Below, piece by piece: positions 1 through 10,000 of a DNA stretch of 10,000 bases. Both the position numbers and the translations under genes were made by a program. Each line of letters begins with the position of its first letter. Within the stretch, counting starts at the first letter, position 1. Location: NCBI RefSeq assembly GCF_963676685.1, contig NC_092349.1:63316924-63326923 (forward strand). Direction: 5' to 3'. This stretch comes from Mytilus edulis (Eukaryota). The notes below the pieces were generated by a model. It saw only the letters and a list, made by a program, of their open reading frames with translations, did no database searches and was not told the DNA's origin.

Positions 1-182
1 TTTGAGCTTTTGAGAAAATTTCCGTTTTAAATTTTCCTCGAAATTCAGTACTTTTTTTATTTAACTGTACTTATCTCATGCGCGGATCAGGGTAATGAAC
101 ACGTACTGAATAACTGAAAAAAAGATTCTTGACATTTTTTTCCTTGCGATTAATTCAGACATTTAAAAATGTTCAGTTTTAA

Positions 183-2366
183 ATGACTGCTTCAGTAGTA
201 AAAACAGTTTCTATGTTTTATCATTTTTCAGGCAACCAAAGAAACCGACTCATAAACTTCTACTCACAATCCAAAATTCTGTTTTGCTTTTTATCATATC
301 ACATTGGAAATGAGTCCATTGTAAGGTTTCGCAGGAGAATAATTGATAAGAAATATCCTCATAATATAGATTTTTTGGGTAATACACTACTTGCAAGCGG
401 AAGTAAAGCCGAGGGTTTGGATATGAAAGGAAGCGACACAGATATTATGCTGGCAGACTCCACATTTAAAGCATATGAAGGTGATGATAAATCGAATCCC
501 TTGATATCATGTCGATACGATTCTATGTCATCTGACTTAAAACCAGGATACGTTCTGGTTGAAACCTGGATGAGAGGTTATCCGTCTACTCTGCTTTCAA
601 GTTCTTTCTTTAAAACAAGCATTTCCCTTTTCGTGCCTTTTCTGAAATTGATTTATCAAATGGAACCTCATGGACCAGCTATGTCCGCTTCATCTTGTGG
701 AGAAGACTTTGATTTAGTTTATTGCATAAAAACTGTCACTTGGCCAAACATAGCGAGCGAATGGGTGCTTAGAAAAAGAAAATACGGATGGCCTTCACTG
801 GAAATGATCCAAAATATTCAAAGTCAAAGTTGTCATTTAGTTCCTGTCAGTAGTAAAGTGGATGCTAGAACCACAGAAGAAATTGAATGGAGACTATCCT
901 TTTCATTTGCAGAAAGGGAGCTAGTTCATTCTTTTAGTCATACACAACTGTTAGTATATGGATTACTGAAACTCATTTTAAAAGAGGTAATAGGCGTCCA
1001 TCATGATATAGCAGAACATTTGTGTTCTTACTTTTTGAAGACCACAATTTTCTGGGTAATAGAAGACAATCCGCAATCTATTTGGAATGTCGATTTCCTT
1101 ATTTTATCATTCCATTTATGCTTGGAACGCCTGATTCAATTTATTGTAGAGGAAAATTGTCCAAACTACTTTGTTCGAATCAATAACATGTTTTTAGAAC
1201 GTTTCACACCAGCAGGAAAAGAAAAATTGCTGGCGCTCTTGTGTGAAATACGGCACAGTGGATTCAGCTGGGTTACTTTAAGTTCAACCTTGAGAAAACT
1301 TAAAACGTTTTTAAAATATCCACTATCAATACGATCGCTTTATTGTGTTCAAAATGTAAAGTTTAGAAAAGAATGCTTTAGACTTATTTTAGATCTGTCA
1401 AGACACGTAAAACTCATTCTGAGCAATATGATCATCGCTAAACGACAGAAATACCTCCTATCATATGTAAAGTCTATGGTGAATACACCTGTTATCCGAT
1501 GTAGCTTTCTGAGTCACATTTGTCACTTTTTAGAAATAGATAATAAGAAAATGACCCATAAACAACTACATACCTTACGAAAACTATACCTACATTTATT
1601 ATGTATAGGATGTAGCGCAGATTTGGCGTGTGGTAAGACAATGCTAGCAAGCTGGTTGTATAATCAGGGAAAATTCCCAGAATGCTTGCAAGTTACCAGT
1701 TTCGTTTTAGAAAGCATCAAGTTTAGATGTTTCCATATTGGCACTAAAACTGTTGTGGAATGTTCTAGCACAACACATATGACAAAAGAGTTGAGTTCTG
1801 AGTTTCTAGGTTGTTTAAATCATTATTATACAGAAAATATCACTATTTCTGATAAGTCCGGAAAAATATCTGTGAGAGAACTGTCGAGATTTTTAAATTG
1901 TTTTTTAAATTTGTCATCCATAGAAGACTATAGGCAAAGAAATGCATTTTTTGGTCAAGTTTGTCCTGAAGTATATTGTCATTTTTTGCGATTTTTATGC
2001 TATCTAAGACAATCTGATTTACCACATAGTGAAGAGGAGTTTAACAAAATGATACAAGTTCATTTCGTTGGATCAGAATACGAGAAACAAATTCATGATT
2101 TAATCGTAACTGTCATGAAAATCACGGGCAAAATTATAACACGAAATGTTCAAAATGATTGTGAAAGTGAAATATTTACGATGAACGATTTTTTTCATAT
2201 TGAATCTGATGGAGATCTTTCATTGTTTCGTGATATCGATGTTTCAATGTTATCTAGAACTTTTGATAGCTTTAATGACTATGGTTGTGATGAAAACTTT
2301 ACAAGAAGAATTTTTGCGTTTCCTAATTCGATATTTCAAACAATTTTCAGTACATTAAACAAATAA
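183..2366 (+). CDS. Mab-21/cGAS-like nucleotidyltransferase (cGAS-like receptor, cGLR) with a long C-terminal extension; apparently a single exon
   Basis: A 727-aa uninterrupted ORF is very unlikely by chance in ~65% AT DNA. Catalytic NTase motifs match human cGAS: h-GS at aa 73-74 (nt 399-404); [DE]h[DE] as D85-T-D87 (nt 435-443), compared from memory with cGAS GS...E225/D227; third acidic residue D177 in FDLVYCI (nt 711-713), matching cGAS VDIILAL D319. Other family signatures: GSKAEGLDMKGSDTDIML versus MAB21L1 GSFYEGLKVSSPNEFDLLL; EWRLSFSFAERELV versus cGAS TWRLSFSHIEKEIL; SYFLKTTIFWV versus cGAS SYHVKTAFFHV; NYFVRINNMF versus cGAS NYFIPEFNLF. The stop codon overlaps an AATAAA signal. The start is ATG at 183, immediately after an in-frame TAA at 180-182. 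Confidence 0.85.
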   Translation: MTASVVKTVSMFYHFSGNQRNRLINFYSQSKILFCFLSYHIGNESIVRFRRRIIDKKYPHNIDFLGNTLLASGSKAEGLDMKGSDTDIMLADSTFKAYEGDDKSNPLISCRYDSMSSDLKPGYVLVETWMRGYPSTLLSSSFFKTSISLFVPFLKLIYQMEPHGPAMSASSCGEDFDLVYCIKTVTWPNIASEWVLRKRKYGWPSLEMIQNIQSQSCHLVPVSSKVDARTTEEIEWRLSFSFAERELVHSFSHTQLLVYGLLKLILKEVIGVHHDIAEHLCSYFLKTTIFWVIEDNPQSIWNVDFLILSFHLCLERLIQFIVEENCPNYFVRINNMFLERFTPAGKEKLLALLCEIRHSGFSWVTLSSTLRKLKTFLKYPLSIRSLYCVQNVKFRKECFRLILDLSRHVKLILSNMIIAKRQKYLLSYVKSMVNTPVIRCSFLSHICHFLEIDNKKMTHKQLHTLRKLYLHLLCIGCSADLACGKTMLASWLYNQGKFPECLQVTSFVLESIKFRCFHIGTKTVVECSSTTHMTKELSSEFLGCLNHYYTENITISDKSGKISVRELSRFLNCFLNLSSIEDYRQRNAFFGQVCPEVYCHFLRFLCYLRQSDLPHSEEEFNKMIQVHFVGSEYEKQIHDLIVTVMKITGKIITRNVQNDCESEIFTMNDFFHIESDGDLSLFRDIDVSMLSRTFDSFNDYGCDENFTRRIFAFPNSIFQTIFSTLNK
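300..1310 (+). other. Mab-21 / cGAS nucleotidyltransferase core domain (approx. aa 40-375) within the ORF
   Basis: Boundaries come from the first and last recognisable family motifs: the GS/DxD block near aa 70-90 through the NYFVRINNMF block near aa 335-345, with one further helix allowed. Boundaries are approximate. Confidence 0.7.
1311..2363 (+). other. C-terminal ~350-aa extension of unknown function. It is Cys/His-rich (CIGCSADLACGKT, CHFLRFLCYL, CPEVYCHF), with an acidic tail (ESDGDLSLFRDIDVS...GCDEN)
   Basis: Stays open in the same frame as the Mab-21 domain across >1 kb of AT-rich DNA, so it is under coding constraint. I could assign no known domain by eye. Confidence 0.55.
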
Positions 2367-2432
2367 AATGATGCTTGTTTTATATGGAACAAACCGTCGT
2401 TAATAAACAAACACACACACTCTTTGAATAAA
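2362..2432 (+). terminator. Three polyadenylation signals (AATAAA at 2362-2367 overlapping the stop, 2402-2407, 2427-2432)
   Basis: Canonical AATAAA hexamers within 70 nt after the stop codon of the 183-2366 ORF. A short (CA)5 run lies at about 2412-2421 between them. Confidence 0.5.
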
Positions 2433-3358
2433 ATTTGATTCACTAAACCATTTTCTCTCTGTTCATTGTTTTATATAAATTGCAAAAACTTCGTTTTGGA
2501 GTTGAAAAAGGGTTTCGTTTTTGTATTTCTACTTCGTAATATTATTTGGCCATTTGAACTGTTTTTCAAGTGTCACTGATTGTCTTTTGTAAGCAAAATC
2601 TGGAGTAGGGAATTTTAATATTGTTTTCTATGAAGTGTTTATTGTAATCTAGTCATGCGTAGAAGGGTTCTGAAATTAAGAGCAGATGCTTTATTTCAAG
2701 TATGCAAAATAAACGTTGTTGAAAATATTTGATCAGCAAATTTGTAAAAACAATAACCTTTACGTTGTATTTTAACATTAGGAGTTAGGTAATGTTTCTT
2801 ATATTTTATTTCCACCGCATTTTATTTATATATTTTTGCGTGTTTCTCGCTCTTTAGCTCAAAGTAGTAAAGCCAGTTACCCTAACAAACTGCATGGAAT
2901 TAAATGTTGGGATTGTTTTGTTTATCTTGTTGTATTTTTCCTAATTAAACTATAAATAAGGATAATGAACACTATGCAGGTTTAAAACTGTACCAGAAGT
3001 TATCCCCAACATTATGAGTTTAATATAATACCTGTTAGGGTTACTGTTCGGCACCGTAATAAAAGGACTTTAAAACTTACGTCAGCCTTTGCAAGTAATT
3101 AATCGCTTATCTGATTTTTTTAAGCCCAATTCATTCATCAAACATGATTTATATTTTTGAGCTATAATGTTTATCAGAATTTGCTTTAAACAGTTACTTT
3201 TAGGAATTTTGGTCTTCAATGCTCTTCAACTTCGCACTTTATTTGTCCTTTTTAACTGTTTTGGATTCGAGCGTCACTGACGAGTCTGATGTACACGAAA
3301 CGCGCGTATGGCGTATATACAAAATTTAGTCCTGGTATCTATGATGAGTTTATTTAAA

Positions 3359-3404
3359 GTTTAGAAGTATTAGGCCCAGTTGTTTCAGAGAAGATGTTTA
3401 AATG
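3359..3404. repeat. Dispersed repeat family A, copy 1 (GTTTAGAAGTATTAGGCCCAGTTGTTTCAGAGAAGATGTTTAAATG)
   Basis: About 85% identical to copy 2 at 4224-4268. Confidence 0.8.
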
Positions 3405-3442
3405 CAAGCAAACATGTTGAACAAATTGTGTCAAATTGTATT

Positions 3443-3463
3443 TAATAACATTAACGGTACCAA
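3443..3463. repeat. 21-bp direct repeat, left copy (TAATAACATTAACGGTACCAA)
   Basis: Matches 3793-3813 (TAATAACATTAATGGTACCAA) at 20/21, 350 bp apart. Confidence 0.75.
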
Positions 3464-3705
3464 TTTTTCTGCACCAGATGCGCATTTCGACAAATAATGT
3501 CTCTTCAGTGATGCTCGTGGCCAAATATGTAAAATCCAAAGCGTATATAAAAGATGTAGAGCTATAATCCAAAAGTTCCAAAAAAGTATAGCCAAATCCG
3601 TGAAAGGAATCAGAGCTTTGCATGAGGGAGATACATTCCTTAATTTATAGTATTTTTTAACATTTTGTAACAGCAAATTTAATAACACAAAACAATCCGT
3701 ATTTT

Positions 3706-3790
3706 CATGCCAGTACCGGAGTACTGGCTACTGGGCTGGTGATACCCTCGGGGACTAACAGTCCACCAGCAGAGGCATCGACCCAGTGGT
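3706..3790. other. GC-rich island with two perfect hairpins: CCAGTAC-cgga-GTACTGG (3710-3727) and GCTGGTG-22 nt-CACCAGC (3735-3770, enclosing CCC-tcg-GGG and GACT-aac-AGTC mini-stems)
   Basis: Local GC content is far above the surrounding ~30-35%. Stems were read directly from the sequence. There is no tRNA cloverleaf, and the B-box match (GGCATCGACCC) is only weak. Confidence 0.4.
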
Positions 3791-3792
3791 AG

Positions 3793-3813
3793 TAATAACA
3801 TTAATGGTACCAA
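3793..3813. repeat. 21-bp direct repeat, right copy
   Basis: See 3443-3463. It lies immediately 3' of the GC-rich hairpin island. Confidence 0.75.
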
Positions 3814-3970
3814 AAAGGTAATAACTTCTAAAGTGATCAATTGACAATTTTGGCAATTTTTACTTTTTTGTAGATCTTACCTAGCTAAAGATGTTTGCTG
3901 TTTGCAGTTTATCTCTATCTTCAATAATATTCAAGATAATAACCCAAAACTGCAAAATATCCTTGAAATT

Positions 3971-4551: not shown

Positions 4552-5165
4552 GGTGGCCATCTTGAACAGTAAATCAGCAACAAATGAAGCAGAACTTCAT
4601 CACCACCTCAAAAGGAACATTTATGACGTAGTAATTAAGTTTCAAATTCATTGCAAGCAGTGGTACTCTAAAAGAAGACATTTGTATGTATTTTCCATGG
4701 GTCCTATGTTAAACTAAATCCCAAGCTGGCAGTCATCTTGGACGAAGGATCGGCTACAAAGTAACAACATTTGGTCAGCATCTCATAAGGAATATTTATG
4801 CTATGTTTGGCTTCATTCAATTCAGTGGTTCTCTAAAAGAGGACATTTATATGTATTTCCCGTAGGGTCCTATTGTCAAGTAAGTGATCCGCTGGCGGCC
4901 ATCTTGGATGATGGATTGGCTACAAAGTAACAAAATTTGGTCAGCACCTCATAAGGAACATTCATGCCATGGTTGGTAACATTCCATTCAGTGGTTTTCT
5001 AAAAGAAGACATTTGTATGTATTTCCTATAGGTTCCTATATGTTTAACTAATTCCTCTACTGGCAGCCATCTTGTATGATGGATCAACTACAAAGTAACA
5101 ACACTTGGTCAGCACATCATAAAGAACATTTATGTCATGTTTGGTTTTAATCCATGCAATGGCTT
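4552..5165. repeat. Tandem satellite-like repeat, ~166-176-bp monomer, about 3.6 copies
   Basis: Monomers start at about 4552, 4728, 4894 and 5062, each beginning GG(C/T)(A/G)G(T/C)CATCTTG...GGCTACAAAGTAACAA(C/A)ATTTGGTCAGCA(T/C)CTCATAAGGAA(T/C)ATTTATG...TTCAGTGGTT(C/T)TCTAAAAGA(A/G)GACATTT(A/G)TATGTATTTCC...GGTCCTAT. Copies are roughly 80-85% identical by eye. Confidence 0.9.
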
Positions 5166-5683: not shown

Positions 5684-6759
5684 ACCAATTCAAAAGAAAA
5701 AGCTTTGGATTAATAAATGCACTAATTGTTTTTCCTGACAAAGGTTTTAAACGAATTGAACTGGACAGTAGCTTCAGTTTATACAAATAACATTTTGATT
5801 TTACAGTAAAATGTGTGTGCATTTAAATCATTCACAATTGGTCTTTGATAAATTACAACAAGCAAATATTTCCAAAACCCTCCAAAAATTTTATTTTCTA
5901 AAAAGTACATTAATTAAGCTTTGTTTTGTCCAAAAAACGATTTAAAGTAAATCCTGAAAGAAACCCTGGCACACAATCATATCCAATACCAATAAAAATA
6001 AAACAAATACCAACCGGCAGTTTTTAAGAATAATGCAGTTATTACGAGAAATGTGTTACATTATTACTAATTACTTAACTTACTCATTACCTTAGAAAAT
6101 GACACAATTTAACTGGACACAAAATTGTCAAAAAGTTTTGATACATTAAAAACAGTGTTGTGCCAGCTCCAATTTTGGTGTTTCCACACTTTAATTGTTT
6201 TATGGGTAGATGCAATTGAATCTGCAATTAGCTTTGTCCTTGGACAATTAGATCCAAACACAAAACTTGGGCATAAGTAGCATATTGATCACTGAACAAA
6301 AATGGACTGGGACAATAAAATACATACACTACGTAGATGTATACTCAAATATCAAGGATATAATTTCAAGATGGTTGATAAACCCTAGAAGAAAACAATA
6401 TCTTAATACATATTTTGGTCAGTTATATCTTTGTTGTACAACTGCATAAGTTTTATCTTTTCCTTGGTGACAACCAACAATATTCCTATACTTAATTCTG
6501 TATGATCCTTTGTATTTCCACCTGTTTGGCCATGCATGTTCCGTCCTTTTGATAGGCTCCTTGATACTGTAATGGAGAAGTAGTACATCATGCCATTTTC
6601 AAGGTTTAACCTTCAACAATGTGCGAAACCCTTACTGTACCTTTGAAAGACTTCTTGGCATTACAAAATATGAAACAATTCAGGATAGAAAATGATAATA
6701 TCTTTATTAAATCTGCAAACAATTAAAACATACTGGTATGTGAACAACCTCTTATCAAT

Positions 6760-7570: not shown

Positions 7571-7673
7571 TTAAGTCCTTTCTTTAAAGCTGGCCATTAT
7601 ACCATTTTTGGCTCTCATCACAACCTCTATAAAATGTTCTACTTCATGATCTGGATCTACAGTTATCTCAAAT
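7571..7673 (-). CDS. Candidate terminal exon of a roadblock/LC7-type dynein light chain-like gene (…R)FEITVDPDHEVEHFIEVVMRAKNGIMASFKERT*
   Basis: On the minus strand, a TATATTTACAG acceptor sits immediately upstream. Local composition is less AT-rich than the flanks. The peptide resembles the DYNLRB C-terminus [22 protein letters not shown] (E-I-x-V-x-P-D-x-[DE]...F-[LI]-[IE]-V-[IV]). The stop TAA is at 7573-7571. Confidence 0.35.
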
Positions 7674-8204
7674 CTGTAAATATATGATATTGGTATGTAA
7701 AAGCTTTTAGAAAAATTCAAAAAACAATTAATTATTGTGATGCAGGTATAAAAACAAAAATGATATTTGTTGATAAAAATGTCATTATTTTTCAAGGTAT
7801 AAATACAATTATTAAAACATAATCAAAGCACATTTTTCATTATTCATCAATGAATGTATGAAAATCCATATAAAAAGTATAAGTTCAGTAGTCGTCATTG
7901 ATTCATGTCTGTCAAATTTGTTTTTTGTAAAATGTTTTGAATAAATTCATGAAATTAGGCTGTTAGTTTTCTCAATAGAATAATGGTTTCTTACATTTCA
8001 TGTTGGGGCCTTTTATAGCCGACCATACAGTATTGGTTATGTCCAATGAATTGTTAAATGCAGTTCTTTTGCAAATTGTTGCTTACATCCACTTTACTTG
8101 AACATTTGTTGATGAGTCTCATTGGCAATCATACCAGATCTCCTTATTTTAACATTATTATTTTTGCCCAAAATAAAATAAAAACTTAAATACAACAAGA
8201 TCAC

Positions 8205-8270
8205 CTATTGACTAGCCTAGCAATTAGGACCTTTTCTTCATTTTGTGCAAAGGCTTGGCCAATACAATTT
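8205..8270 (-). CDS. Candidate internal exon, same gene: (L)NCIGQAFAQNEEKVLIARLVN(R)
   Basis: Minus strand. Excellent acceptor TTCTATTTTTCTTATTTCAG|AAATTG; donor ATAG|GTGATC. Only one frame is open, and it ends in phase 2 (AG|), which joins the downstream exon's leading A to give AGA = Arg in frame. QNEEKVLIARL resembles roadblock [10 protein letters not shown]. Confidence 0.3.
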
Positions 8271-8646
8271 CTGAAATAAGAAAAATAGAATGAAGTTAAA
8301 AATTTCATTCATGATATTTTCTCCTTTACATTACTCTGTTTTATTATAAAATTAATAATATATACTTTAGGAGTTCTATCTGATAGCTAGAAAACTAAAG
8401 AATAGTTGTCTCCTTCAAACGACTGTTAGTGAAAGATGAGACAATTCATGTTTAATTGATAGGACAGCCAATATTAAGCAGTTGATTTGTTGAGCAGAAT
8501 ATAAAGTGTATAAATACTTTCAAGCAGCAATGTTAATTATGTGAGATTACAATGGACTTTATAGAAATCTTAGTTCACTGTGAAAAAGAAGTACATAGCT
8601 ATAAAAGTCATTTTCATGGCATTTATCTTTTGTATTAACCAGGTAC

Positions 8647-8731
8647 AGTACATTCCGTGACATGGTCTGAAAAATGTCGCAGGTTTTAAAAAGGCTCAGC
8701 ATCAGCGACTTAAATGTTGATGATTGATTAC
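8647..8731 (-). CDS. Candidate upstream exon, same gene: (x)NQSSTFKSLMLSLFKTCDIFQTMSRNV(L)
   Basis: Minus strand. It starts after an ACAACAG acceptor. NQSSTFKSLMLSLFKT aligns to roadblock NPTTTQYASLMHSFILKA. A phase-2 donor CT|GTACCT is weak but joins the next exon in frame (CT+A = Leu). Donor choice is uncertain. No N-terminal exon was found. Confidence 0.25.
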
Positions 8732-9189
8732 CTGTTGTCAATCAAATCATCAGCTGATAATAAGTGCAATAAAATCAGCCAAGCGTGCATGGTCGGTTGC
8801 ACATGCTACTTAATATTATGTAATTAGTTATGATAATGTAACAGGTAAAATCGATAATTACATAATAGGCACTTAAAAGGCATGAACTGTTTTCAGATTG
8901 TTTCAGTTCCATTTATCTAATTTACCAATAATAGAAATATGGGTTTTTTTTTCAGGTCTGTCCGAGGAAGAAATATTCTACACATTATTGTTTCTTATTT
9001 ATCTTCTCAGTTTATCTTTTTTTACGATTCGAATATAAATTAAAATATCTTTTCCTTTCCGTTCTTTTCTCATTATTTCTACATTTCGTCACGAGTTATA
9101 TGTTCTAGTAATTTTGTAGATTAGTTTTCTTTTAAAAAGACATGAGTTTCCTGTCTTTATTCATATTTGAAAACGTAATGTGAGGGAGG

Positions 9190-9800
9190 GTAAGAGGGGT
9201 CCTGTACTCACTAATTTGTTGAGGTGATAATTTCGTGTTTACCACGGTCCAACTGAAAGTTGAGTTAATCTAAAAGGATTCTATGCAGGAAAGGGGAGAT
9301 AATTGATGTTTACCTTAGTCAAACAGAATCGAAGTAAAACTTTAAGGATCTACCTTAGAGGTTGTTCTTGATTGAAATTTTCTGCAGGAAAAAGGGAGAT
9401 AACTCAAATATAACTTGGAAAATAAGAAAATGGAGTAAAATTATATAAATGTACAAAGGGAGTCTGTCTCAATTGAATCATTCTGGAGGAATGGAGAGAT
9501 AACTCATATTCACTTTGATCAAGTAGAAAATGAAGTAAAATTATAAGAATCAACCTAGGAGGTCTTTCTCAATTGAATCATTCAGCATTATAGGGGGAGA
9601 TATTTTTTATATTTTCCTTGGTCCATAAAAATGGAGTGAAATTATTATCCAGCCATTATTGTTATCTTTTAAATCTCTCTGCATAACAGAAGAGACAATC
9701 GTTATTTACCTTGGTCCAGCTGAAAATGGAGTAAAGCTATAAGGATCCATATCATGATGCTTGTCTCCTTCGAATCTCTCTGGTTTAAACTCCTGGAAAT
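9190..9800. repeat. Degenerate tandem minisatellite, ~100-bp monomer, about 6 copies
   Basis: Units recur at about 9193, 9293, 9394, 9493, 9594 and 9692. The shared core is GG(G)AGATAACTCA...TTTACCTTGGTCCA...GAAAATGGAGTAAAATTATAAG(G/A)ATC...CTAGGAGGTCT(G/T)TCTCAATTGAATCATTC. Identity is roughly 65-80%. Confidence 0.8.
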
Positions 9801-10000
9801 GAAAATATAAATGGTAATGTTTCTAACTTATCACTATTTGATTTATAGAAAAGAATGTGTAAAAGGTGAGTCTGGTTATTGATGCCACATTCAAAATTGC
9901 AAGTAAGCCACTGTTTACAATATAAAAAGATGTGTTGTATCTAAATAGTTATCAAAGGTACCTCTGTACCAGGATTATAAAATTTAGTACGCCAGATGCG

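Follow-up and report, generated by a model that had tools for sequence, protein, structure and literature searches.

A predicted cGAS-like receptor gene of Mytilus edulis with an intact nucleotidyltransferase motif and a divergent TPR-type C-terminal module

The described systems closest to the gene reported here are fusions of a cGAS-like receptor (cGLR) to TPR repeats, a domain architecture listed by Li et al. 2023 (10.1101/2023.02.22.529553, Fig. 1C/S2A) in which a Mab-21/cGAS nucleotidyltransferase (NTase) with a complete catalytic motif is followed by tetratricopeptide-type repeats. Such fusions occur in bivalves whose genomes each carry upwards of 200 cGLR genes; 218 cGLR genes and nine STING genes are reported for Mytilus galloprovincialis, an expansion of ~218 genes in Mytilus having been published in 2023. 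The share of animal cGLRs with an appended sensor domain has been put at ~13%, and the nucleic-acid-sensing cGLRs known so far have a pI >8.5. Culbertson & Levin 2023 mention neither TPR nor bivalves. Among solved structures the best relative is Sp-cGLR1 of Stylophora pistillata (PDB 8GJY; E 4.7e-17 with the single sequence), a dsRNA-activated 3'3'-cUA synthase.

Here we analyze a 10,000-nucleotide stretch of the M. edulis genome (the window) encoding a protein that resembles these systems in its predicted catalytic half, and likewise stems from a bivalve lineage with more than 200 cGLR genes. It aligns at 29% identity (E 2e-43), with the motifs in register, to a scallop cGLR that Li et al. 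2023 screened and that also extends past the helix bundle. Compared with the published cGLR-TPR fusions, the window protein has predicted TPR units that are too divergent for Pfam and are split by an insert of ~80 residues, with a helical bundle preceding them and an acidic tail after them; it would probably be counted as 'single-domain' in a conserved-domain search. It shares with Sp-cGLR1 the predicted two-lobed fold and an aligned third catalytic Asp, but identity is ~21%, the crystallized chain of 376 residues stops with the cGLR domain and lacks a C-terminal module, and the window catalytic domain has a pI of 6.6 as against >8.5 in nucleic-acid sensors. Human and mouse cGAS have in common with it the NTase core plus helix bundle and the GS…[DE]h[DE]h…h[DE]h pattern (target-normalized TM 0.65-0.72 for the model), whereas the cGAS zinc thumb H-x5-CC-x6-C is absent (aa 17-366 contain no CC dipeptide) and an additional C-terminal module of 361 residues is present.

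Gene structure, orthologues and selection

An open reading frame (ORF) of 727 aa runs without interruption from 183 to 2366 on the forward strand; the next longest in the window has 89 aa. Since the DNA is low in G+C (27-38%), stops should arise at ~7% per codon by our own estimate from composition, and a chance ORF of 727 codons is improbable (p near 1e-24); the ORF is real coding sequence. Its features at the gene level are as follows.

1-231, forward strand: 3' end of the preceding intron, including the ATG at 183-185, codons 1-16 and the splice acceptor
211-231, forward strand: conserved splice acceptor, with the pyrimidine tract at 211-229 and AG at 230-231
232-2366, forward strand: terminal coding exon, starting at base 2 of codon G17 (phase-1 intron), ending with TAA at 2364-2366 and encoding aa 17-727

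Annotated Mytilus orthologue proteins align from nt 231 onward only, directly after a pyrimidine tract and cAG acceptor (ttttatcatttttcag/GC) that is kept in three related loci, and in M. trossulus a 10-bp deletion shifts the 183-230 stretch into a TAA. Because the alignment begins just past the conserved acceptor, codons 1-16 appear to be intron sequence and the ATG at 183 a spurious start; these observations, together with the frameshift, indicate a gene split by an intron, of which the window would hold the last exon and main coding part, with the true N-terminus and first coding exon lying upstream, outside the window. In the M. galloprovincialis orthologue, exon 1 lies ~1.7-1.9 kb upstream of the site corresponding to window nt 1. 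The first-pass annotation, which had read 183-2366 as an intact gene and had named splitting by introns as an observation that would count against it, thus holds for the uninterrupted 727 aa but not for the start, an intron joining this ORF to an upstream exon. The gene model is corrected accordingly, with the intron recognized and the N-terminus placed outside the window. Rfam searches of the window returned no RNA families, and AATAAA showed no enrichment there; no poly(A) site was assigned.

Two annotated 'uncharacterized proteins' are orthologues or alleles: LOC143075677 of M. galloprovincialis (95% aa identity over aa 17-727) and LOC134727596 of M. trossulus (89% over the same span). Both share the stop codon and the identical C-terminus …FSTLNK*, begin in an upstream exon outside the window (24 to ~145 additional residues), and lie in flanking DNA colinear with the window, having a cytochrome P450 gene downstream. 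The terminal exon is 96% identical in nucleotides to M. galloprovincialis OZ263149.1.

Purifying selection acts on both halves of the encoded protein, and the C-terminal half evolves faster: compared with M. trossulus, dN/dS is 0.18 in the N-terminal half (Fisher p 4e-10 vs 1) and 0.39 in the C-terminal half (p 1.5e-5), the nonsynonymous rate being higher in the latter (p 4e-5). The acidic tail, aa 661-727, has a dN/dS of 0.26-0.44. That the ORF is a recent duplicate, a dispensable or decaying copy devoid of function, might be entertained for a family so hugely expanded, at a locus whose flanking DNA is separated from that of M. galloprovincialis by several indels; we regard this as extremely improbable, given that the 711-codon exon is intact and free of indels in three Mytilus genomes, that dN/dS over the exon is 0.30-0.41, significantly below 1, and that the splice acceptor is conserved. 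A pseudogene was rejected on the dN/dS values and the intact ORFs.

The predicted catalytic domain

Residues 17-366 are predicted, from sequence profiles and a structural model, to form a Mab-21/cGAS-type NTase whose active-site motif GS…DxD…D is intact. The following features were located, with conservation counted among 107 paralogues.

231-1280, forward strand: cGLR/Mab-21 catalytic domain (aa 17-366), comprising an NTase core and a C-terminal helix bundle, assigned by Pfam, PDB profile, AF2 and Foldseek
399-404, forward strand: G73-S74, supplying 'GS' in the active-site motif of the NTase (LLASGSKAEG); G in 105 and S in 100 of 107
435-443, forward strand: D85-T86-D87, with the first and second catalytic acidic residues ([DE]h[DE]h); D85 and D87 each in 106 of 107
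711-713, forward strand: D177, third catalytic Asp (F176-D177-L178); all 107

Two Mab-21 domains score above the Pfam gathering score of 24.1 that applies to each: PF03281 at aa 164-249 (E 2.7e-11, 44.3 bits) and PF20266 at aa 275-345 (E 1.9e-10, 41.2 bits). Sequence matches in PDB are to Sp-cGLR1, cGAS, MB21D2 and Cv-cGLR1. A family profile also finds Sp-cGLR1 (8gjy) as its best PDB match (E 1.1e-30, aligned at profile positions 123-372), with cGAS at ~1e-19; active cGLRs reach 110 bits and cGAS 73 in this profile search, with MAB21L1 the weakest Mab-21 match (36.6). The full-length AF2 model (pLDDT 86.8, pTM 0.88) has pLDDT mostly >90 over the catalytic domain, which Foldseek superimposes on cGAS, Sp-cGLR1, Cv-cGLR1 and MB21D2 over ~350 columns (E ~1e-10, target-normalized TM 0.57-0.72). 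The N-terminal half had been proposed at first pass to be a Mab-21/cGAS NTase with every catalytic element present, and both the identification and the positions of G73-S74, D85-T86-D87 and D177 in FDL are borne out by Pfam, PDB, AF2 with Foldseek, and conservation in 100-107 of 107 paralogues.

GS and DTD align with GS and DMD of the curated scallop cGLR, and D177 aligns with the Asp in VDL of Sp-cGLR1 (8gjy). The residue preceding GS is S72 (Ser in 88 of the 107 paralogues), at a position where the published motif has [QT] (h[QT]GS). Ser for Thr before GS is a conservative replacement, and the position is not a metal ligand. Li et al. 2023 (10.1101/2023.02.22.529553) had in their screen set a coral 'MB21D2-like' protein that reads W-S-G-S, and the pattern by which those authors recognize a cGLR is GS [X8-20] [DE]h[DE]h [X50-90] h[DE]h. 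Here GS is followed by 10 residues, D85-T-D87-I, 87 residues and F-D177-L; homology extends over the NTase core and helix bundle, and the model superimposes on known structures, so that the protein would be classed as a cGLR on all three counts. A catalytically dead Mab-21 protein of the MAB21L1/2 type was rejected, D85, D87 and D177 being present and conserved.

The C-terminal module

Residues 367-727 are predicted to form a divergent helical module that has three TPR-like hairpins at its core and is common to at least 107 bivalve Mab-21 paralogues. In the model, the module also includes a family-specific N-terminal helical bundle, an insert of ~80 residues with β-hairpins, and an acidic tail.

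1281-1622, forward strand: first part of the module (aa 367-480), helical bundle; in AF2 a 37-residue helix (aa 382-418) plus three more, for which TPR matches do not account
1623-1718, forward strand: TPR-like unit 1 (aa 481-512, …GKTMLASWLYNQGKFPECLQVTSFVLES), where conservation within the module is highest
1719-1964, forward strand: insert separating the TPR units (aa 513-594, ~80 residues), short β-hairpins in AF2 (pLDDT 64-85)
1965-2207, forward strand: TPR-like units 2 and 3 (aa 595-624 and ~632-675; …YCHFLRFLCYLRQSDL…), unit 3 being degenerate in the subfamily
2163-2363, forward strand: acidic helical C-terminal tail (aa 661-727, pI 4.2), conserved in its own subfamily only; low-confidence model

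The first-pass annotation had found no recognizable domain in the last ~350 aa and had suggested a new module, to be given up should a structure search reveal a known domain. The former statement stands for a single-sequence Pfam scan of the window protein, which detects no TPR; profile and fold searches instead point to TPR-type repeats, a known repeat type, in an architecture already published as cGLR-TPR fusions. A search with the family profile brings up consensus TPR proteins (E 1.3e-4), including CTPR-rv4 at positions 602-666, and hhalign against CTPR3 aligns one unit (73% probability, E 3e-5). TPR matches appear in 12 of 55 paralogues scanned with Pfam, every one below gathering score, and fall on aa 486-513 (TPR_2/TPR_12/TPR_14) or aa 588-675 (ANAPC3/TPR_1/TPR_2/TPR_8). 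The helix-turn-helix hairpins of the model are structurally similar to solved TPR domains; Foldseek of the whole C-terminal module against PDB gave no significant global match (best E 0.2, TM <0.3). Sub-threshold single-sequence Pfam matches in aa 376-727 to PX (E 0.03), EF-hand (0.14) and Med31 (0.75) were rejected as noise.

At least 90% of the 107 paralogues retain A489 and Y493 in unit 1, and L602 and L605 in unit 2; the bundle of aa 367-480 has a conserved K460/Y463/K467 region, and the insert carries a conserved S-x-L-x-P-x-E-L motif. E566 is almost invariant in close paralogues. In AF2 unit 1 is not adjacent to units 2-3, since the insert, with strands at 517-519, 524-526, 549-556 and 590-593, intervenes. 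Such an insert is atypical of TPR domains. The TPR core is basic (pI 9.2).

The module was not found outside a Mab-21 context. A profile of the C-terminal module alone retrieved nine matches from 5.8 billion proteins, all bivalve Mab-21 proteins or fragments, and phmmer against 1.84 billion representatives retrieved 21, belonging to the same Mab-21 family apart from two Chlamydia-PMP/β-helix repeat proteins; these, matched repeatedly by aa 549-613, were judged spurious repeat matches. At least 107 paralogues share a TPR-type module whose non-TPR inserts are conserved, yet standard domain scans miss it.

The strings of Cys and His noticed at first pass, like the acidic tail, are indeed in the sequence, and the module contains 17 Cys and 14 His. 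They had suggested that the C-terminal ~350 aa might be a previously unseen ligand-sensing domain holding zinc through paired Cys/His clusters, a view with which the lack of a Pfam domain in the single sequence and of a global Foldseek match would agree. Invariance of these positions, however, fails: C606 (91 of 107 paralogues) is the sole conserved one among the 35 Cys/His positions of aa 346-727, all others, including C474, C477, C483, C516, H518, C527, C594, C599 and H600 of the clusters, being kept in no more than 46 of 107, and cluster positions are mostly Ser, Thr, Leu or Tyr in other paralogues. The predicted fold, moreover, is all-helical and TPR-like, and the family profile matches consensus TPR proteins. 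A zinc domain is therefore very unlikely, the comparison of paralogues having largely refuted it already, and we remove it from further consideration.

TPR helical repeats attached to, or working with, an immune signaling enzyme are known from IFIT1, the bacterial Avs/STAND NTPases and the Rap/NprR quorum sensors, and offer an analogy only. IFIT1, Rap and NprR are among the non-significant Foldseek matches of the module; for none of IFIT1, Avs/STAND and Rap/NprR was similarity to it significant, either in sequence or in global structure, and there is no sign of common descent.

Proposed function and implications

We consider it likely that the gene is one of the ~200-member bivalve cGLR expansion, coupling an intact NTase to a TPR-type module, and that its product is inactive until a ligand is bound, whereupon it passes a nucleotide messenger to STING. 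The module may pack against the catalytic domain, as the whole-chain pTM of 0.88 suggests, and the protein would be inactive at rest; recognition of a ligand would lead the NTase to make a cyclic di- or oligonucleotide, and this product would activate one of the mussel STING receptors. The TPR module, outside the catalytic machinery, would serve as a protein- or ligand-interaction surface, whether as sensor, autoinhibitor or adaptor. Because the catalytic domain has a pI of 6.6, as against >8.5 in nucleic-acid sensors, it is plausible that the ligand is not a nucleic acid, or that it is captured by the basic TPR core. Li et al. included relatives bearing the extension among the 140 proteins they screened, and these lack an 'active cGLR' label in Table S3 (10.1101/2023.02.22.529553); we therefore do not expect dsDNA or poly(I:C) to elicit activity, and catalysis itself stands as a prediction.

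The same relatives, and the fact that the catalytic domain is not basic, could also be accommodated by a Mab-21 scaffold that signals without a cyclic nucleotide, the TPR module assembling a signaling complex and the NTase pocket merely binding nucleotide. TPR domains are classical protein-protein scaffolds. Precedents have been reported for MAB21L1, MID49/51 and shrimp Mab21 proteins that activate IKKε, and non-canonical Mab21 signaling has been described in crustaceans (PMC12928593). We nevertheless think a scaffold rather unlikely: the full GS/DxD/D set, kept in 100-107 of 107 paralogues at identities down to ~23%, is hard to explain without catalysis, purifying selection is stronger on the N-terminal half (dN/dS 0.18), and the nearest solved relatives are active cGLRs and cGAS (110 and 73 bits), MAB21L1 scoring 37 bits.

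A further extension of the preferred reading, that of a ligand-gated NTase, seems to us unlikely but draws on the analogy of TPR sensors in bacterial STAND/Avs proteins: the module could be a family-specific sensor or autoinhibitory domain that lets a large bivalve cGLR clade answer ligands other than nucleic acids, for example proteins or peptides of pathogens. In the model the TPR hairpins are broken by the conserved β-hairpin insert and preceded by the bundle, and are probably packed on the catalytic domain. Should the module prove to be such a sensor, the ~13% figure for animal cGLRs with an appended sensor domain would be substantially too low, since this module escapes Pfam and CDD.

The gene is a sound but ordinary member of the known cGLR family and not a new kind of system; if its proposed function is right, it adds another orphan cGLR. 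Residues 17-366 and 367-727 make a defined pair of constructs for distinguishing the module as ligand sensor from the module as catalytic gate. The ligands of bivalve cGLRs, which number hundreds of genes, and the role of their appended repeats are questions in invertebrate innate immunity on which this locus bears.

Gene structure and surrounding sequence

The window contains a single long ORF (183-2366, plus strand, 727 codons), the next longest on either strand having 89 codons; the DNA is AT-rich (27-38% G+C), and with stops at ~7% per codon, by our own estimate, the chance probability of an ORF of this length is ~1e-24. Protein searches identified two orthologues, LOC143075677 of M. galloprovincialis (P0001; 735 aa, 95% identity) and LOC134727596 of M. 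trossulus (P0002; 855 aa, 89% identity), which RefSeq lists as uncharacterised Mab-21 proteins. Both begin to match the window exactly at nt 231 (aa 17, in ORF numbering), and no coding for their N-terminal residues (…MYDEPWTPDIYITDEYLDRLNIPP) was found anywhere in the window. The sequence at nt 211-231, ttttatcatttttcag/GC, has the textbook form of a pyrimidine tract and AG acceptor, and this acceptor is kept in the three related loci compared. In M. trossulus, a 10-bp deletion shifts the frame of the 183-230 stretch, which then runs into TAA. On the M. galloprovincialis chromosome, where the locus is 96% identical to window 1-2720, the gene spans 4.1 kb and exon 1 lies ~1.7-1.9 kb upstream of the position matching window nt 1; the stop codon of the window ORF is identical in both orthologues. 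The start of the orthologue match, the conserved acceptor and the M. galloprovincialis gene structure thus define the 3' end of an intron and a terminal coding exon. The ORF start at 183 is not the protein start, and the real protein has 24 to ~145 additional N-terminal residues.

Gene features of the window, with supporting evidence
1-231, plus strand: 3' end of phase-1 intron (orthologue match start, acceptor, M. trossulus deletion)
232-2366, plus strand: terminal coding exon (orthologue match from nt 231, shared stop codon)
~9709-9822, 8204-8269 and 7574-7672, stop 7571-7573, minus strand: cytochrome P450 exon segments (conceptual splice, Pfam p450)

The N-terminal extension of ~145 residues in the M. 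trossulus orthologue is encoded in exon 1, outside the window (3001-3444 of related locus L002). Matching coding sequence in M. galloprovincialis is divided between two blocks (6287-6583 and 9854-10084 of related locus L001) with ~3.3 kb between them, and the protein as annotated begins at an internal Met, so that this RefSeq model may be truncated.

A cytochrome P450 gene, convergent with the Mab-21 gene, has its last three exons in the window (~7571-9822, minus strand), and its heme-binding motif, FSAGPR/NCIG, is interrupted by an intron; the conceptual splice covers positions 381-456 of 462 in Pfam p450 (E 9.8e-20), and a p450 gene occupies the matching place in the M. galloprovincialis locus. 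An intron of this P450 gene contains one tandem repeat (9396-9583; 100-bp unit, 1.9 copies, 79% matches). A second tandem repeat (4658-5145; 166-bp unit, 2.9 copies, 81% matches) is matched at several offsets by the orthologous M. galloprovincialis region, suggesting a different copy number there. Segments 3401-3888 (~490 bp) and 6364-6487 (~120 bp) are without counterpart in that locus, and the 158-bp element at 3196-3353 occurs there a second time, at a different place and with 91% identity, and is thus probably a dispersed repeat.

The catalytic half

As the first-pass annotation had proposed, the N-terminal half is that of a cGAS-like receptor (cGLR). Both Mab-21 domains, Pfam PF03281 (aa 164-249) and PF20266 (aa 275-345), score above their gathering thresholds, and the closest solved relative is Sp-cGLR1 (8gjy; E 4.7e-17 with the single sequence, 1.1e-30 with a 107-sequence family profile), followed in order by cGAS (~1e-19), MB21D2, Cv-cGLR1 and, far weaker, MAB21L1. 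AlphaFold2 modelling from the family alignment gave a mean pLDDT of 86.8 and a pTM of 0.88; over ~350 columns, the first half of the model superposes on crystal structures of cGAS and cGLRs (target-normalised TM 0.57-0.72). The scallop protein XP_021369834.1, from a published cGLR screen, is 29% identical (E 2e-43), with active-site motifs in register.

The active-site pattern used as a defining criterion of cGLRs by Li et al. 2023 (bioRxiv 10.1101/2023.02.22.529553) is present with correct spacings (10, then 87 residues), the sole deviation being Ser before GS in place of Gln/Thr. The residues G73-S74, D85-T-D87 and F-D177-L stand where the first reading had placed them, and are conserved among 107 bivalve paralogues extending down to ~23% identity (G73 in 105, S74 in 100, D85 and D87 in 106 each, D177 in all). 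Unlike cGAS, the protein lacks the zinc thumb, the sequence of aa 17-366 having no CC dipeptide, and its catalytic domain is not basic, having a pI of 6.6, in contrast to values above 8.5 in nucleic-acid-sensing cGLRs.

The C-terminal module

The C-terminal half forms a helical module that contains TPR-type repeats of divergent sequence. When aa 376-727 are scanned by themselves, Pfam gives no significant domain, which explains the initial impression of an unknown one. The module is alignable in all 107 long paralogues, from mussels, oysters, scallops, pearl oysters and ark clams, with A489, Y493, L602 and L605 conserved in at least 90%. Positions 486-514 and 602-668 of the family profile match designed consensus TPR proteins (8bu0, E 1.3e-4, and others); hhalign of a module-only alignment against CTPR3 aligned aa 483-510 (73% probability, E 3e-5). 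Matches to TPR_1, TPR_2 or ANAPC3 occur in 12 of 55 paralogues, every one under the Pfam gathering score, and map consistently to window aa 486-513 and 588-675. TPR does not account for the helical bundle, with its 37-residue helix, preceding unit 1, for the ~80-residue insert that separates unit 1 from unit 2 and carries short β-hairpins and the conserved motif S-x-L-x-P-x-E-L, or for the acidic tail (aa 661-727, pI 4.2).

The Cys/His-rich strings and acidic tail noted earlier are present in the sequence. A zinc site built from these clusters is very improbable: among the 35 Cys/His positions of aa 346-727, C606 alone is kept (in 91 of 107 paralogues), paralogues mostly carry Ser, Thr, Leu or Tyr in place of the proposed members, and we rejected a zinc domain on this poor conservation.

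Module-only searches found no occurrence beyond the Mab-21 proteins of bivalves, whole or as fragments. Two Chlamydia-PMP/β-helix repeat proteins (P0129 and P0139) gave 6-7 matches each to aa 549-613 (E 1.5e-12 and 1.2e-5), which we judged repeat or composition artefacts.

Constraint, proposed function and family context

Pairwise dN/dS (Nei-Gojobori)
M. trossulus: whole exon 0.30; aa 17-366 0.18; aa 367-727 0.39
M. galloprovincialis: whole exon 0.41; aa 17-366 0.33; aa 367-727 0.49

Against M. trossulus, dN/dS is significantly below 1 in the N-terminal (Fisher p 4e-10) and C-terminal (1.5e-5) halves, and the exon is without indels in three genomes, so that both halves are functional coding sequence; with such ratios, a decaying gene copy is scarcely credible. 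The C-terminal half has the higher nonsynonymous rate (p 4e-5), and this faster evolution would fit a recognition surface, or equally no more than a relaxed constraint.

We consider it likely, as to identity and general mode of action, that this is an orphan cGLR which, on meeting its ligand, would make a nucleotide second messenger acting on a mussel STING, the TPR-type module serving as sensor, autoinhibitor or adaptor. The predicted catalysis and STING link draw on family membership and motif conservation, and the putative module role on TPR functions elsewhere, the faster evolution and the single-unit AlphaFold2 prediction. That the protein is instead a scaffold signalling without catalysis is unlikely, its catalytic residues being near-invariant.

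The animal cGLR catalogue of Li et al. 2023 (n=3,020) documents extreme bivalve radiations, with 218 cGLR and 9 STING genes in M. galloprovincialis, and recognises TPR and ankyrin fusions among cGLR architectures. Many cGLRs were noted there to be inactive in vitro, presumably without the right ligand; relatives of the window protein extending past the helix bundle were included in the 140-protein screen and are not labelled 'active' in Table S3 of that study. The first-pass observation was therefore largely real and its cGLR call right; its novel, uncharacterised module proves to be a divergent TPR-type one, its architecture already described, and the gene has hundreds of paralogues. Mildly new is a TPR-type module with conserved non-TPR inserts that standard domain scans miss. 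Since a very large part of the bivalve cGLRs seems to have it, counts of domain-fused cGLRs may be too low.
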